Source: Escherichia phage BF17 | Sequence record: MW822008.1 | Strand: one strand, 5' to 3' | Length of the DNA: 64,000 bases | Part shown: one piece after another, positions 1-64,000 of the stretch | Layout of the letters: the number at the start of each line of letters is the position of its first letter | Numbering within the stretch: position 1 is the stretch's first letter | Notes under the pieces: model-generated | The model's input: the letters and a program-made list of their open reading frames with translations, nothing else | Told to the model about the DNA's origin: nothing | Databases searched by the model: none | Translations under genes and position numbers: made by a program

Positions 1-2283
1 CCTGAAACGTCACCAGTTGCGACAACAGAAGATGCATTAATTACACCAAATGTACTTGGGTTAGTTGCACTAACTGATTTTGTTACTACATCAGCAGCAG
101 ACAAATCAATAGCACCAGTTACTGCAAGAGAACCACCCACAGTTACGTTACCAGTAGTTGTTAAAGAAGCAGCACTTACATCAGTAGTGCTTAAATCTAT
201 ACTACTCGGAGTTAGTGTTCCAGTAATAGTTACGTTATTAGCAAAAGTAGTGTCACCAGTAATACTTGGAACAGTTAGTGAAGCCATAGAACCAGCACCA
301 GTTACTGCAAGAGAACCACCAGATAGTGCACCAGCCGCAGTTACTGTATTACCAGATACAGACGCACCAGTAACATCACCAGTACTGGTTACTGAACTAG
401 CAGTTAGGCCAGCTAAAGTAGTGTCCCCAGCAACAGATAGTGTTGTTGTAACATCAACTTTATTTGGGGCGATATCAAGACCATCAACATCAGCTTGGGC
501 AGTTACACCAGTAGTTGTACCAGTTACTACTAAATCACGTACAGTTACAGTTTGACCAGTAACGCTAACATCACCACTGAAAGTACCTTTAGCAGCACTT
601 ACGTCACCAGTGAAGGTTGCAGCAGTACCAGTTAGTGCACCAACAACATTAGCTGTTCCACCAACTTGTAGGTTAGTTCCTACGGTGGTTTGACCAACAG
701 ATTCAAGGGTTTGTCCTTTGATTGCTTCAGCAGCAACAACAGATTTAGGAGTTAGGTCTTGACCACTTACATCAACTGTTAGGCCAGTTACAGTACCAGT
801 GAATTCAACATCATTTAGTACTGATTTACCAGCTACTTGTAGTTGTGGTGTTGCTGGACTTTGTGTACCATTACCAGTAATAGATAGATAATCTAGTTTG
901 TTTAGACCGTTACCTGTGATACCATAGGTTGCAAGAGATGCATCACCAAAGGTAGCAGTTTTTTGTACATTTAGTACTGCTGGAGATACTAGTTCAGACT
1001 GAATTTCATTTTGTAGAATTACAGTTGGACGAGCACCAGGGGCAGAATAAGCAAAACCATACTTAACGTTAGCATCGGCTGCGTTTTGTCCTAAACTTAC
1101 TGCTTTAAAATTAGCAGTACTATTAGCACCGGAAATATCAGCACCCAAAGTTACACCACCAACAAGGCTAGTTAATCCAGAAACAGTTAGAGTGTTTGCT
1201 TCAATATCATCAAGACTGAAAGTACCGCCGAGTGTACCAGATACGTTGATGTTATTAAAATTAGCAGTACCAGTACTTTCAATGTTAGGAATAGTTGCAG
1301 TTCCTGTTACTTCGAAATCATGAACTTTAGTTTTACCTGAAGTTACTTGTAATAGTGGAGTTGTTGGATCTTGAACAGAGTTACCAGATACTGTTAGGTA
1401 ATCTAGTTTGTTTAGACCATTACCAGTAATACCAAAAGTGGATAATGACGAATCACCAAAAGATGCAGTTTTCAATACACTTAGGGTAGCTGGAGACATC
1501 AATTCTGATTGGATTTCGTTCTGTAGAATTACAGTTGGACGAAGACTTGGAGCAGAATAGTTAAAGCTCAAACGGTAGTTAGTGTTTGCAGCATTGGAAC
1601 CAATTTTAATATCACGGAAGTTTGCACTACTATTCACACCAGTAATGTTGGAACCTAATGTAACACCACCTTGTAGACTGGTCAAACCAGAAACAGTTAG
1701 AGTTGTTGCATTAACATCAGATAGACTAAATGTTCCACCTAGTGTACCGGAAATATTCACATCTTTAAAGTTTGCAGTTCCAGTTGATGTAATATCAGTA
1801 GTTGCAGTGTTTGTGAATGTTGCATCAGTTGCAGTTATTGTGTCAAATGCTGCGGTAGTGCCAGTTTCAGCAGTAATGTTACCTTTAAATGAAGAAGTTC
1901 CAAGAACATCCATTGATGCCACTTGGGTATCTTTTAGTACAGCAGTGCCAGCGGTTTGTGTTAGGTTACCTGCCATTGATACTGGGCTTTGGAATTGTGC
2001 ATTAGAATTAATCGTTGCAGTATCAGAACCAACAGGTAAATTACCAATTACGGAATTACCATGAACTTCAATTCCACCATTCAATGATGCTTTACCAGCA
2101 ACATCTAGTGTAGATGAAATGTCTACAGTTTCTGCTTCAATTGCAGTGAATACAGCGTCAGCAAAAGTTACAGTTCCATTAACTGTTAGATTTTTATTGA
2201 ATACTGCATCGCCTTTCACAAGAAGATCTTTAGCAACCGTTGCACCACCAGTTATATCGAGATCTGTTTTAATCGAGTACATT
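1..2283 (-). CDS. Tail fiber protein, N-terminal ~760 aa only (gene runs off the window start)
   Basis: Minus-strand frame is open from ATG at 2281-2283 (RBS GGAGGG, tttggagggaactaaATG) to position 1; no complete minus ORF is listed here and plus ORFs 187-555 and 1582-2064 are antisense shadows. Translation MYSIKTDLDITGGATVAKD... is T/S/G/V/N-rich and beta-fiber-like with an internal ~165-aa duplication. Confidence 0.6.
836..1830 (-). repeat. Diverged tandem duplication (~2 x ~490 bp) inside the partial tail fiber gene
   Basis: Segments ~836-1330 and ~1347-1830 align at nucleotide level (shared runs such as taatctagtttgtttagacc, ttctgtagaattacagttggacg, ccagaaacagttagagt); encoded ~165-aa units are ~70% identical (TGTANF..NISGTLGGTFSL..TLTVSGLTSL..RPTVILQNEIQSEL..GITGNGLNKLDYL). 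Confidence 0.75.
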
Positions 2284-2358
2284 TAGTTCCCTCCAAATAG
2301 GCAAAAAGCATAAAATACATTTGACCTTGTTAATATACATATATTTAGTTATTGATAT

Positions 2359-2402
2359 AAAAAATCCAGACTAGATGAATCATAGTCTGGACTATTTTTT
2401 TT
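2359..2402. terminator. Intrinsic terminator hairpin flanked by A- and T-tracts (can act on either strand)
   Basis: aaaaa-CCAGACTA-gatgaatca-TAGTCTGG-actatttttttt; lies between the 299-aa gene end (2401) and the start of the partial fiber gene. Confidence 0.6.
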
Positions 2403-3300
2403 ATTTACCGGAAATTACTATTTTACCACTAAACGCTTCGTCAGAAGTGAATGTAACATTACCACTTGCATCAATTTGAGTTTCGGTTATTACCAGTTCA
2501 AATGGTGATGCTGCTGTGCTGCCTGGAGTTTTATTTGAATAAATTGAAATATACAAATTATCAGGTGTTTGGTTATGTTCAGACGCGGGGATAGTAATGG
2601 TGTATTCATCACTAGATACTACCCAATCCGCTTGGTTAATTAATTTACTATAAGGTACTGTCATTGTTGTTGCTCCTATGATGTTGACTTTGACACTTGT
2701 ATAATCAGTGATTTGACCAATAACATCAATCGTAATGTCACCAATACCACTCACAGTGACGTTAGTTTGGAATACAGTGTCAAGTGGGATGTTACCAGGG
2801 TCACCCTGTAGCTGAACCATAATATCTGGTCCACGACCATGTACTGATTCAGGTAAAGAATAAGTATATTGATCTGTTGTTCCAGGAACTAATGTAAATG
2901 CCGATACAGGAACGATTTCAGTAGTAACGTAAGAACTATCAGTACCTGGAGTTGTGCTTTGGAGAGGTTTCCAAACACCAAGGTCTTTAATATAGATCTG
3001 AATAATATTAGTACTGTCAACTAAGAAGTAAGCGTCACCATCTACACCGATTGATTCAGATGGTGCAATAGTTCCACGTAAAATACCGGAACCGCCACCA
3101 CCACCGCTATGTGTATTCAAATAACCCAATGTAACCAAGTGTGTATTTGCGGTTGGGTCACCTGCTGAAACAGGAAGAAGTTGTGTACCCGTGTAGTTCT
3201 GGATTTGAACAACATTACCATTAGTGGCAATTTGTGCACCATTTTTACCAAGTATGAAGGTCTTCTTCATGGTTCCTTCTAAATTAGAAAAAACTGCCAT
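2401..3300 (-). CDS. Tail fiber/tailspike-like protein (299 aa) with the shared N-terminal module MAVFSNLEGTM
   Basis: ATG at 3298-3300 with RBS AAGGAGA; N-terminus identical to that of the next gene; Gly-run linker (HSGGGGGSG) then beta-rich C-terminal domain. Confidence 0.6.
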   Translation of the reverse strand: MAVFSNLEGTMKKTFILGKNGAQIATNGNVVQIQNYTGTQLLPVSAGDPTANTHLVTLGYLNTHSGGGGGSGILRGTIAPSESIGVDGDAYFLVDSTNIIQIYIKDLGVWKPLQSTTPGTDSSYVTTEIVPVSAFTLVPGTTDQYTYSLPESVHGRGPDIMVQLQGDPGNIPLDTVFQTNVTVSGIGDITIDVIGQITDYTSVKVNIIGATTMTVPYSKLINQADWVVSSDEYTITIPASEHNQTPDNLYISIYSNKTPGSTAASPFELVITETQIDASGNVTFTSDEAFSGKIVISGK

Positions 3301-3314
3301 TTTTATAATCTCCT

Positions 3315-62994: not shown

Positions 62995-62995
62995 T

Positions 62996-63481
62996 ATGGC
63001 AGTACTAAAAAAACTAACTGAGTATTCTTATATAGCAGAATCTGATGGTTCTGAAAAGATTGGAATACTTATTGACCACAGCAAAAGCCCCACTGAGTAT
63101 AGTGGGGTGGAATTCTTCACTAGTGATGGTGTACTGAAATTTAATTCTATAACTGAATTGGAAGAGTTACTTGGAACACCATTCAAGTATGAGGAAGTAC
63201 AAGTCAAAGACACCAATACTAAATTTATTGGTGACTATCCAGTTAACGATACTGATAGTGTTTATGATGTACAAGAAGGCGAGAACGGCATTAGTACTTT
63301 CCGTAAGAGTGAAAAATCTAAGAAACGCTTCTTCCCTGGCTGGTGGCTTGTTAAATCAGAAAGTGGGGTATACAATCCTCGTTGTACTATCAGTACTGAT
63401 ACGTATGACAATCATAAAGATGATATCTATGGTCCATACAAAACATTTATGGAACTAACGTATCAACAGAAAAACTTGTAA
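62996..63481 (+). CDS. Hypothetical protein (161 aa)
   Basis: Begins 1 nt after the rnh stop; followed by a strong terminator. Confidence 0.45.
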
Positions 63482-63488
63482 GGAGAAT

Positions 63489-63524
63489 GGGGAGTACTTT
63501 AACGAGTACTTCCCTTTATTTGTT
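63489..63524 (+). terminator. Intrinsic terminator
   Basis: GGGGAGTACT-ttaacg-AGTACTTCCC-TTTATTTGTT, 10-bp stem with one G-U pair. Confidence 0.7.
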
Positions 63525-64000
63525 ATGGGCAATTTAATAACTTTCAATAAATTAACTAATTATGATAGTTCAACTATCTTTGAAAGAATGTTAGAAAATT
63601 CTGATAATTCGTATGTGGCAGTAGTTCCACCAAGAGTTGGCTCTTCTGAATCAATTTGTGCCTATGTACTGTACAAGATTTTAAATTCAAGTGAACGTCC
63701 AAGTATTGTTTTATCGACACCAGTTTCGTTTAAAACCAATAGACAATCAATGAATTATTATTTTGAAAGTATGATTTCAAATATTAATAACCATTTAGGT
63801 TCAAATTTGTCAATCATGCATGGCACATCCAGTAGTACTATTAAATGTAAAGGTACTTTTATTGGTGAAATATTATATAGAGCGTTGTCAGGTGATAACT
63901 TGCGAGGTTTTGGTAGAAGTGAAATTGTAATTGATATGTCAACATATATGAGGGATGAGCATTTCATATCTATGACTGATATAATGAGATATACTCATAA
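63525..64000 (+). CDS. Partial ORF running off the window end: putative P-loop NTPase, possibly a terminase-large-subunit-like ATPase; start uncertain
   Basis: Open frame from ATG 63525 to the end of the window; PPRVGSSE (degenerate Walker A-like) and [22 protein letters not shown] (Walker B-like) loosely resemble the T4 gp17 ATPase domain; no clear RBS. Confidence 0.3.

Follow-up and report, generated by a model that had tools for sequence, protein, structure and literature searches.

The cyanobacterial highly iterated palindrome HIP1, GCGATCGC, occurs 15–300 fold over expectation (PMC5861425), and palindromes of this type co-occur with a cognate methyltransferase (PMC4390886). HIP1 is the closest analogue of the word described here, AGTACT, as it is found in a jumbo coliphage. 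The preferred forms of both are hyper-abundant, 8-bp perfect palindromes, both lie in coding DNA in all frames as well as in intergenic DNA, and both are conserved between genomes above background. The function of both is putative, and single-base deviations from either fall mostly at the outer positions (PMC4390886 for HIP1). Unlike HIP1, the phage word is AT-rich and of unrelated sequence, being neither GCGATCGC nor a GC-rich alternate HIP, and its carrier is an Enterobacterales virus rather than a cellular (cyanobacterial) chromosome. Its hexamer core is far denser (ca. 1 per 360 bp), it has no evident cognate methyltransferase in the phage, and it is fixed in early-promoter register and piled up at the genome ends. 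Furthermore, the periodicity reported for HIP1 spans 10–90 kb, while the evenness found in the phage is one of short-range spacing.

Several other systems share part of this behaviour. SlmA-SBS, Noc-NBS, MatP-matS and ParB-parS also distribute dyad-symmetric words over a replicon, there bound by a dimeric protein that marks the DNA. They use tens of sites of 12–16 bp per chromosome, whereas the phage carries about 1000 sites of 6–8 bp in 351 kb. The SlmA site in addition shares the AGTACT core (PMC3020112), but the flanks of the phage copies do not fit it. Chi, KOPS and DNA uptake sequences are likewise short words of high density under weak selection per site, with positions that turn over at steady density and that are written through synonymous sites. 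Those words are asymmetric and orientation-biased, whereas AGTACT is palindromic and without polarity; a polar word is rejected because AGTACT is its own reverse complement and its flank preferences are symmetric. Restriction-site avoidance is also DNA-level selection on a short palindrome but has the opposite sign, AGTACT, the ScaI-type site, being over-represented. Classical avoidance is seen in this genome for many other palindromes, with GCGC, GGTACC, CAGCTG, CCATGG and TGGCCA all at 0 copies in the window. GCGC is wholly absent across the clade and stands at 6.8 per kb in the E. coli host sample.

The window, meaning the whole 64,000-nucleotide stretch analysed (MW822008.1), comes from an Asteriusvirus (RaK2-like) jumbo coliphage. 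Against 21.2 ± 5.3 copies in dinucleotide-preserving shuffles (maximum 35), AGTACT occurs 137 times (2.1 per kb), making it both the most over-represented hexamer (z = 25) and the one with the highest absolute count. The commonest octamer is CAGTACTG, with 36 copies versus 1.1 expected. An earlier note on this DNA had claimed an excess; the excess is real and much stronger than was claimed (137 versus 21), and its “about a dozen” copies in 19–24 kb come to 14. No other 6-bp palindrome is comparable, none exceeding about 2.5 times its base-composition expectation, or about twice with dinucleotides controlled. Nearly all genes longer than 600 bp contain at least one copy, and density hardly depends on context (2.13 per kb in coding and 2.41 in non-coding DNA; 2.19 in plus-strand and 2.07 in minus-strand genes). 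Spacing has a CV of 0.84, as opposed to 0.99 under random placement (p = 0.02). The principal sites are as follows.

1–64000, no strand: array of AGTACT, 137 copies including 36 of the full CAGTACTG, from counts
14717–24685, minus strand: giant virion structural protein gene with 23 AGTACT (2.3 per kb), spanning the dense 19–24 kb stretch
28251–28267, minus strand: pair of AGTACT 11 bp apart (AGTACTgaactAGTACT on the minus strand) in the leader of a baseplate wedge gene
29254–29259, minus strand: intergenic AGTACT upstream of the hub/lysozyme gene, from sequence and gene map
46239–46244, plus strand: intergenic AGTACT about 50 nt upstream of a virion protein gene starting at 46293
47821–47826, plus strand: intergenic AGTACT between a TATAAATA late-promoter-like block and the Shine-Dalgarno of the gene starting at 47842
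54776–54781, plus strand: intergenic AGTACT just past the stop codon of a 101-aa gene and before a terminator hairpin
58043–58078, plus strand: three AGTACT in 36 nt within a 100-aa ORF, the densest local cluster of the window
63489–63514, plus strand: intrinsic terminator with an 11-bp stem formed by two AGTACT (GGGGAGTACTTtaacGAGTACTTCCC), then TTTATTT

The double sites to which the earlier note had pointed are present, at 28251/28262 and 63493/63505. The first pair lies downstream of an ATAAATA late-promoter-like block and forms only a weak 7-bp hairpin (−5.1 kcal/mol, z = −1.3), a structure that is not significant. The terminator, which follows a gene ending at 63478, reaches −16.4 kcal/mol (z = −3.8). 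At 29254–29259 the final T of the word opens a TATAAATA late-promoter-like octamer to give the combined AGTACTATAAATAAT, and the 101-aa gene ending just before 54776 lies upstream of the DNA polymerase gene. Most window copies are intragenic and would serve as “marking” copies; a few either were taken over, it seems, as hairpin stems of a terminator or leader, or adjoin late-promoter-like blocks.

The earlier note had guessed that codon bias may account for most of the excess. Coding sequence holds 129 of the 137 copies, of which 79 read AGT-ACT (Ser-Thr), 36 xxA-GTA-CTx (Val-Leu) and 14 xAG-TAC-Txx, the first two being contexts already named in that note. AGT is favoured for Ser (34%) and ACT for Thr (52%), GTA is common for Val, the phage has tRNA-Ser(GCT) and tRNA-Thr(TGT) genes, and the Ser-Thr frame supplies 61% of the coding copies. 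Nevertheless, shuffling synonymous codons with all proteins kept yields only 34.1 ± 5.1 coding copies (z = 18.6), codon permutation 29.4 ± 5.2, and models of codon context with the previous one or two bases 35.8 and 47.2 (z = 17.8 and 14.4). These four codon-aware nulls are three- to four-fold too low (z = 14–19), and the guess does not hold, codon and context nulls giving 34–47 against 129. Each frame is raised 3–6 fold (79, 14 and 36 copies in frames 0, 1 and 2 versus 24.6, 2.3 and 7.1 expected), the two frames other than Ser-Thr by 5–6 fold. Among the 132 Ser-Thr dipeptides of the window 60% are spelt AGT-ACT, where codon usage predicts 18%, and CTG, a rare Leu codon (5% of Leu), makes up the second half of 21 among 56 GTA-CTN pairs; the favoured codons are more plausibly a consequence of AGTACT than its cause. 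The hint of use which the earlier note had seen in intergenic copies stands, 8 of the 137 being intergenic versus 0.62 expected (Poisson p = 3e-7); with codon and dinucleotide composition controlled, the observed/expected ratio is about 3–4 in coding and above 10 in intergenic DNA.

The bases next to the word lead to the same conclusion. Compared with backgrounds matched by frame, C is over-represented at −1 and G at +6 in frames 0 and 2 (p = 1e-6 to 1e-10). These flanks are symmetric though they sit at different codon positions, and all frames and both gene strands are enriched, which points to pressure on double-stranded DNA. AGTACT is kept by selection on DNA rather than by codon habits. 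While the earlier note was thus right about the excess, the Ser-Thr and Val-Leu contexts and the intergenic hint, and wrong in its guess at codon bias, what lies beyond it is an 8-bp optimum, a genome-wide and clade-specific trait, even spacing and boxes in early promoters.

Genome-wide counts were taken on vB_Ec-M-J (351 kb), which is near-identical to the window phage. AGTACT is found there 967 times versus 108 expected (9x), and CAGTACTG 216 times versus 5.2. This 42x excess lies above the at least 15-fold genome-wide over-representation that characterises HIP-type palindromes. The preferred form of the word is the 8-bp perfect palindrome, and enrichment falls in a graded manner from the 42x of the consensus octamer to 9–15x for variants at positions 1/8, 2.5–5x at positions 2/7 and about 1–2x for variants of the GTAC core. 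Over the 967 sites weaker symmetric flanks are evident, T-rich at −2 to −4 and A-rich at −7 to −9, and no position beyond ±1 carries more than 0.05 bit of information. A repeated mobile mini-element or repeat family is rejected, as these sites have no similarity past the core word.

Density in vB_Ec-M-J rises from about 2.3 per kb to 6.7 per kb in the terminal repeat, roughly three-fold. Spacing is under-dispersed (CV 0.87, p = 0.0004), with a biggest gap of 1965 bp (p = 0.008) and none above 2 kb across 194 kb; vB_Ec-M-J does have one 8.6-kb stretch without any AGTACT, so coverage is not obligatory everywhere. The early sigma70-type promoters of the terminal repeat contain two boxes, AGTAC-TTGACA ... 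AGTACT-G-TATAAT, whose starts are 20 or 22 bp apart, and in vB_Ec-M-J the box ends lie upstream of TATAAT by 1 nt in 19 cases and by 21 nt in 24. The diverged RaK2 has the same fixed-register layout. In the terminal repeat, which lies outside the window, the word therefore occupies a position that is fixed relative to −35 and −10 and kept in diverged relatives, as expected of an operator. Searched in IMG/VR, the composite promoter pattern was found in contigs of the RaK2-like clade only. The promoter boxes could partly have been inherited through duplication of intergenic cassettes.

The excess is confined to one phage clade. It amounts to 5.5–9x in PBECO4, RaK2, Munch and GAP32, and counts in the remoter relatives PA5oct, Atu_ph07 and RAS14 revealed no excess. 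Shared AGTACT positions amount to 54%, 31%, 27.5% and 20% among relatives, where all hexamers give 40%, 16%, 17.5% and 16.5%, so that sites are conserved beyond background as in a HIP. At conserved Ser-Thr dipeptides AGT-ACT is kept in 80–86%, although non-motif codons predict 28–55% (p = 0.03 to 1e-5). Positions of the word turn over, then, and its density, even spacing and synonymous codons are maintained. A continuing biased-repair process would equally yield such retention at synonymous sites.

The explanation we tentatively prefer, and to which we give somewhat less than an even chance, is that AGTACT/CAGTACTG is a highly iterated palindrome under duplex-DNA selection in RaK2-like jumbo phages, read by a symmetric factor. 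The word probably marks phage DNA for a symmetric DNA-binding factor; a two-fold symmetric (homodimeric) protein, encoded by the clade or packaged, would read it as duplex DNA. Enrichment declines from one position to the next, as it would under a binding-energy matrix. Phage DNA contains the word at about 35 times the density of sampled E. coli DNA (0.06 per kb in one 50-kb piece), so the factor would be selective in coating or marking the DNA of the phage. Two promoter boxes in fixed register are arranged as in an operator, and for that reason this factor most likely governs early transcription as well, probably through shut-off. Early promoters fire before any phage gene expression, and an operator role therefore needs a later repressor or an injected protein. 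Among the small proteins encoded in the window none is basic and none shows a recognisable domain for binding DNA. With a pI of 4.5, the annotated “transcriptional regulator” is without an informative structural or Pfam match, and comparison of the annotated regulators with Pfam, NCBIfam, PHROGs and the PDB gave no candidate AGTACT binder.

A bolder reading, which we regard as rather doubtful, takes AGTACT as a positive “self” word read by a phage protein and GCGC as a “non-self” word cut by a phage nuclease. The phages would then tell their own DNA from that of the host by sequence words and not by base modification. The reader of the self-mark would coat, protect or regulate the DNA of the phage, with the terminal repeats and early promoters as its nucleation points, while a phage-encoded nuclease would attack GCGC and destroy the host chromosome.

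The alternative that survives best, although unlikely, is a HIP-type methylation motif, in which an orphan DNA methyltransferase of the phage targets AGTACT or just the GTAC core. The excess would stem from a methylation-linked function or from methyl-directed short-patch mismatch repair, as proposed for HIP1, and methylation state could time the early promoters (parental methylated versus newly replicated DNA). The phage does have two orphan methyltransferases, one an N6-adenine enzyme of the Dam family (PF05869), the other a compact C5-cytosine enzyme (PF00145) conserved clade-wide, but enzymes of PF05869 are typically GATC-specific or relaxed. Clustering of one-base octamer deviations at the outer positions, as in HIP1 (PMC4390886), is in its favour, as is the reported methylation of RaK2 DNA (PMC3622015). 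Bisulfite m5C in RaK2, however, is in CpG context (PMC3622015) and AGTACT is without CpG, and a 50% identical C5 enzyme occurs in phage ‘outra’, which is without AGTACT; the C5-methyltransferase of the phage seems not to fit as the explanation. The 0 copies of coliphage ‘outra’, versus 10.5 expected, do agree with restriction directed at AGTACT among E. coli populations, a hazard that 967 unprotected copies would have to survive. Against a methylation motif, DNA of fEgEco12 is cut normally by ten enzymes (PMC13070987). Nor are one-mismatch transition neighbours depleted (AGTATT/AATACT 1.27x, AGCACT/AGTGCT 1.45x), unlike the Vsr signature. Ser-Thr spelt TCT-ACT, two bases off the motif, is also depleted (2 versus about 18 expected), for which single-mismatch repair drive cannot account. 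Finally, enrichment is graded and not all-or-none, unlike that of a strict methyltransferase site.

A further alternative, which we hold to be distinctly improbable, is that AGTACT is where a DNA-processing enzyme of the phage prefers to act, one requiring orientation-independent sites at close spacing, recombination-dependent replication sending forks through every region in both directions. Candidates are a T4-type topoisomerase II, whose 4-base GTAC stagger fits CA|GTAC|TG, a nickase, or a primase/helicase. The site is palindromic with a 4-bp core, the spacing is more even than chance over those 194 kb, and phage topoisomerase II subunits, a primase and a DnaB-like helicase are encoded. Such enzymes, however, are also found in relatives without the excess, for example the primase of PA5oct in the stretch examined, and for known primases, which recognise three to five bases in single-stranded form, dyad symmetry is not needed. 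The fixed register of the two early-promoter boxes and the three-fold higher density at the genome ends are left unexplained.

Very little probability attaches to binding sites for an Enterobacterales host protein recruited by the phage, the obvious candidate being SlmA, a factor of nucleoid occlusion. The SlmA site GTGAGTACTCAC has AGTACT at its centre, and SlmA needs G1, T2, a purine at position 3, A4 and G5 (PMC3020112). The phages examined with an excess all infect Enterobacterales (E. coli, Klebsiella, Salmonella, Cronobacter) and the relatives without it Pseudomonas, Stenotrophomonas or Agrobacterium, a host-range correlation that is confounded with phylogeny. At position 3, however, the phage favours the pyrimidine C, with G the rarest base (10%), and GAGTACTC is not enriched (5 versus 3.2 expected) where CAGTACTG is. 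The 12-bp SlmA site GTRAGYRCTYAC has 0 matches in the 351-kb genome and in the window; with this and the wrong flank base, SlmA-binding sites are essentially refuted. That the word has no DNA-level function and merely follows from codon usage, a translational codon-pair preference, dinucleotide composition or amino-acid content has practically no chance, the excess surviving fixed protein, codons and context and spanning all frames and intergenic DNA.

AGTACT skews the codon usage and the Ser/Thr content of all genes in these therapy-candidate phages, and its load leaves them vulnerable to ScaI-type restriction, or dependent on protection from it. If the self-mark is true, it would constitute a modification-free distinction between own and host DNA for a T4-related phage. 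Until now the riddle of highly iterated palindromes has belonged to cyanobacterial chromosomes; a signal of this type now appears in a culturable lytic coliphage, where it numbers about 1000 in 351 kb, shows clear signs of selection, stops sharply at a phylogenetic boundary and has a second role at early promoters. In such a phage the purpose of these words becomes directly testable.

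AGTACT is the most over-represented hexamer of the window and also the most frequent by raw count, with 137 copies against an expectation of 21.2 ± 5.3 in dinucleotide-preserving shuffles, and no other 6-bp palindrome comes close to it in excess. An earlier note, made from the sequence alone, had claimed this over-representation and proposed an exact count against a shuffled expectation, which bears the claim out; its estimate of about a dozen copies at 19-24 kb agrees with an exact count of 14, and the pairs which it listed, at 28251/28262 and 63493/63505, are both present. The 8-bp optimum form of the word, CAGTACTG, is the commonest octamer in the window (36 copies, 1.1 expected). 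Numerous further palindromes are missing or scarce, the pattern expected where restriction acts on unmodified DNA: GGTACC, CGTACG, CAGCTG, CCATGG, TGGCCA, ACCGGT, AGCGCT and AGGCCT each have 0 copies in the window, GATC, CATG, CCGG and GGCC stand at 0.35-0.52 of expectation, and CCCGG/CCGGG occurs 8 times genome-wide against 83 expected.

Over a test stretch, the window is 99.9% identical to the Escherichia phages Ecwhy_1 and vB_Ec-M-J, with PBECO4/121Q at about 84%, and its relatives are the Asteriusvirus jumbo myoviruses of ca. 350-380 kb in the RaK2-like group. The gene map was obtained by placing the 52 annotated genes of vB_Ec-M-J 156286-220285 on the window by tblastn, giving tail, baseplate, head, recombination and DNA-polymerase genes on both strands and a coding share of about 95%. 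On the - strand, 3318-5456 forms a single continuous 713-codon ORF, lacking the stop of the upstream ‘colanidase tailspike’ gene, and its vB_Ec-M-J counterpart is annotated as two adjacent genes of that name. An 840-nt stretch at 39916-40755, flanked by the endonuclease VII gene and the gene after it, contains no ORF of more than 83 aa, no AGTACT and no Rfam match (an Rfam scan of the whole window matched no family), and has a sigma70-like promoter (TTGAAT...TATAAT) inside and terminator-like hairpins at its end; it may encode a non-coding RNA, and PBECO4 and GAP32 have a comparable unannotated gap. The free-standing ‘endonuclease’ gene at 50352-51455, after the major capsid gene, behaves like a mobile homing endonuclease, being 87% identical to its vB_Ec-M-J counterpart while neighbouring genes are 99-100% identical, and with three paralogues in the corresponding region of RaK2.

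Codon bias, which the earlier note thought might account for most copies, is excluded as the source of the excess. Explanations from codon usage, codon pairs or dinucleotides fail under all four nulls, which predict 29.4-47.2 of the 129 coding copies; the two codon-context nulls were trained on the same window data and are therefore conservative.

Coding copies of AGTACT: four codon-level nulls, and reading frames of the 129 observed copies
Synonymous codons shuffled per gene (proteins and codon usage fixed): 34.1 ± 5.1 copies, z 18.6
Codons permuted per gene: 29.4 ± 5.2 copies, z 19.0
Codon choice given the preceding base: 35.8 copies, z 17.8
Codon choice given the preceding two bases: 47.2 copies, z 14.4
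Observed as AGT-ACT (Ser-Thr): 79 of 129
Observed as xxA-GTA-CTx (Val-Leu): 36 of 129
Observed as xAG-TAC-Txx: 14 of 129

The word is enriched three- to six-fold in every reading frame, and its frequent appearance as Ser-Thr or within Val-Leu had been correctly described. Ser-Thr dipeptides are spelled AGT-ACT in 60% of cases (18% expected) and almost never TCT-ACT, while CTG, a rare Leu codon, makes up 21 of the 56 GTA-CTN pairs; overall, AGT provides 34% of Ser and ACT 52% of Thr codons. The phage tRNA genes (vB_Ec-M-J segment L012, 21138-24557) include Ser(GCT) and Thr(TGT), reading the AGY and ACN codons inflated by AGTACT, and these tRNAs may compensate for motif-driven codon usage.

The density of AGTACT is equal in + and - strand genes of the window, and the comparison of coding with intergenic DNA shows that intergenic copies are also in excess (8 observed, 0.62 expected, p = 3e-7). 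These are varied, with one terminator stem, one weak leader hairpin and two copies adjoining late-promoter-like TATAAATA blocks. The pair at 63493/63505, assigned to a terminator in the earlier note, is indeed the stem of a good terminator of the intrinsic type; the fold of the 28251 pair is weak, and a hairpin or terminator role, which holds for 63489-63514, is rejected as a general explanation of paired copies. Short spacings are in excess only at the promoter-related 20, 22 and 23 bp. That the word is avoided in the major capsid gene, as would be expected if it acted as a transcriptional roadblock, is not supported, as the gene has 0 copies in the window but 1-2 in relatives. The canonical T4 late-promoter octamer TATAAATA has 10 copies on both strands of the 351 kb of vB_Ec-M-J (35% GC), and TAAATA/TATTTA is under-represented in the window (44, 92 expected); the late-promoter word may be kept for genuine late promoters.

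Across vB_Ec-M-J, assembled from annotated stretches (364 kb) and counted leaving out the right copy of the terminal repeat, AGTACT has 967 copies (108 expected) and CAGTACTG 216 (5.2 expected). The bases next to the hexamer are symmetrical, with C favoured at -1 and G at +6, a preference that frames 0 and 2 each show on their own (p 1e-6 to 1e-10, against a background matched for codon position). The flanking bases occupy different codon positions in these two frames, which again argues against codon bias, and the symmetry therefore belongs to the DNA, not the code. Further out, the 967 genomic sites show weaker mirrored flanks, T-rich at -2 to -4 and A-rich at -7 to -9, and no extended similarity around them, which excludes a mobile mini-element as their origin. 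Enrichment is graded around the optimum.

Enrichment of the octamer and its variants
Full match to CAGTACTG: 42x
Position 1 or 8 altered: 9-15x
Position 2 or 7 altered: 2.5-5x
GTAC core altered: about 1-2x

Outside the window, the word is densest in the 21.5-kb direct terminal repeat (6.7 per kb) and just before its right copy (about 6 per kb), compared with about 2.3 per kb elsewhere. In the repeat, 85 of the 142 copies are intergenic, and its first 1.7 kb is non-coding with 16 copies. The intergenic cassettes are sigma70-type promoters of a single design, in which the -35 hexamer shares a T with the end of a first AGTACT (AGTAC-TTGACA or AGTAC-TTGCAA) and a second AGTACT, starting 20 or 22 bp downstream of the first, abuts the -10 (AGTACT-G-TATAAT). 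Genome-wide, the distances from AGTACT to a TATAAT downstream of it show sharp peaks at 1 nt (19 cases) and 21 nt (24 cases). RaK2 has a matching density step and two-box promoters with a different inter-box sequence. Among the 2.9 million contigs of IMG/VR, where loci were ascertained via the AGTACT motif itself, every contig with AGTACTTG-N12-AGTACTGTATAAT belongs to this clade and is either 345-371 kb long or a fragment. A block of 8.6 kb with small early genes (vB_Ec-M-J segment L008, 28765-37331) has zero AGTACT where the local mean spacing is about 380 bp, and could be recently acquired DNA or a region selected against the word.

Relatives were sampled as stretches of 37-50 kb. In 43-kb segments, the excess is 5.5-9 fold in PBECO4, RaK2, Salmonella phage Munch and Cronobacter phage GAP32 (DNA polymerase identity to the window 94%, 81%, 78% and 74%, respectively). 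It is absent from the stretches sampled of Stenotrophomonas phage RAS14 (DNA polymerase identity about 30%) and of Atu_ph07 and PA5oct, both described in the literature as related to the RaK2-like group. In ‘outra’, an unrelated coliphage, the count is 0 where 10.5 would be expected. A single 50-kb sample of E. coli K-12 gives 0.06 per kb, compared with 2.1-2.7 in the phage. The absence of GCGC has an identical phylogenetic boundary. This tetramer occurs 0 times in the window (40 expected), in the vB_Ec-M-J genome (211 expected), in PBECO4, RaK2, Munch and GAP32 and in 15 IMG/VR loci of the clade, and is at normal frequency in RAS14, Atu_ph07, PA5oct and ‘outra’, with 6.8 per kb in E. coli K-12; so absolute a ban suggests that the phage encodes a nuclease specific for GCGC, or that a host activity makes the tetramer lethal.

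Positions of AGTACT turn over between relatives. In orthologous genes, the window's sites are shared in place at 54% in PBECO4, 31% in RaK2, 27.5% in Munch and 20% in GAP32, compared with 40%, 16%, 17.5% and 16.5% for all hexamers. At conserved Ser-Thr, AGT-ACT is kept in 80-86%, with 28-55% expected from identical codons outside the motif (p = 0.03 to 1e-5), and where the window has a conserved Ser-Thr without the motif, the relative has AGT-ACT in 10 of 18. Many lost sites carry amino-acid changes (e.g., AATATT or AGTATT), and the pressure therefore shapes protein sequence too. Spacing is more even than uniform random placement, both in the window (CV 0.84, p = 0.02) and over 194 kb of genome (CV 0.87, p = 0.0004), the largest gap being 1965 bp (null median 2746 bp, p = 0.008). 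Selection, or at least a continuing directional process, writes AGTACT into duplex DNA where proteins permit, and this process is limited to one clade.

The most serious alternative is that AGTACT is a methyltransferase-linked word of the HIP type. Cognate methyltransferases accompany HIPs (PMC4390886), and two orphan methyltransferases are predicted in the phage; however, the C5 enzyme has CpG as its reported target in RaK2 (PMC3622015) and has a homologue in ‘outra’, where AGTACT is missing, which also rejects it as the factor recognising the word, and a mismatch-repair signature is absent. Vsr-like biased repair is rejected because one-mismatch neighbours are not depleted save AGGACT/AGTCCT, itself no transition neighbour. 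The strong depletion of that transversion neighbour in the window (2 copies, 23 expected, or 11 by a second-order model) may reflect a general rarity of AGG, GGAC and GTCC. The C5-cytosine methyltransferase gene EcMJ_443 (vB_Ec-M-J segment L012, about 10545-11405) is annotated with too late a start; an in-frame upstream ATG adds MKPIRVLSLFNGMSVG, restoring AdoMet-binding motif I, and the complete protein, 286 aa long, is similar to compact catalytic domains of the Dnmt3 type. A site for a DNA-processing enzyme (topoisomerase II, nickase or primase) would account for the even spacing, whereas neither the promoter register nor the clade boundary fits it. SlmA sites, although they share the AGTACT core, are excluded, as the phage flanks fail SlmA requirements (PMC3020112) and the SlmA site GTRAGYRCTYAC has zero matches in the genome.

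The closest analogue is HIP1 of cyanobacteria, also an octameric palindrome, 15-300 fold over-represented and conserved, with its function unproven (PMC5861425). Unlike HIP1, the phage word has a different sequence, is carried by a virus without an evident cognate methyltransferase, is concentrated at the genome ends and is built into promoters. Papers on RaK2, CBB and fEgEco12 say nothing of AGTACT over-representation, and in the literature collection searched there was no earlier description of AGTACT or CAGTACTG as an over-represented word of these phages, or of the promoter word.

Pfam, NCBIfam, PHROGs and PDB sequence searches, together with pI, gave no convincing DNA-binding candidate in a set of annotated regulators and small proteins of the window. 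The symmetry of word and flanks, the graded enrichment and the operator-like geometry of the early promoters point to a two-fold symmetric reader of AGTACT, most simply a homodimeric DNA-binding protein, which would be clade-encoded or packaged. Its binding would be about 35 times denser on phage DNA than on the DNA of the host, and the early promoters would be under its control as well.
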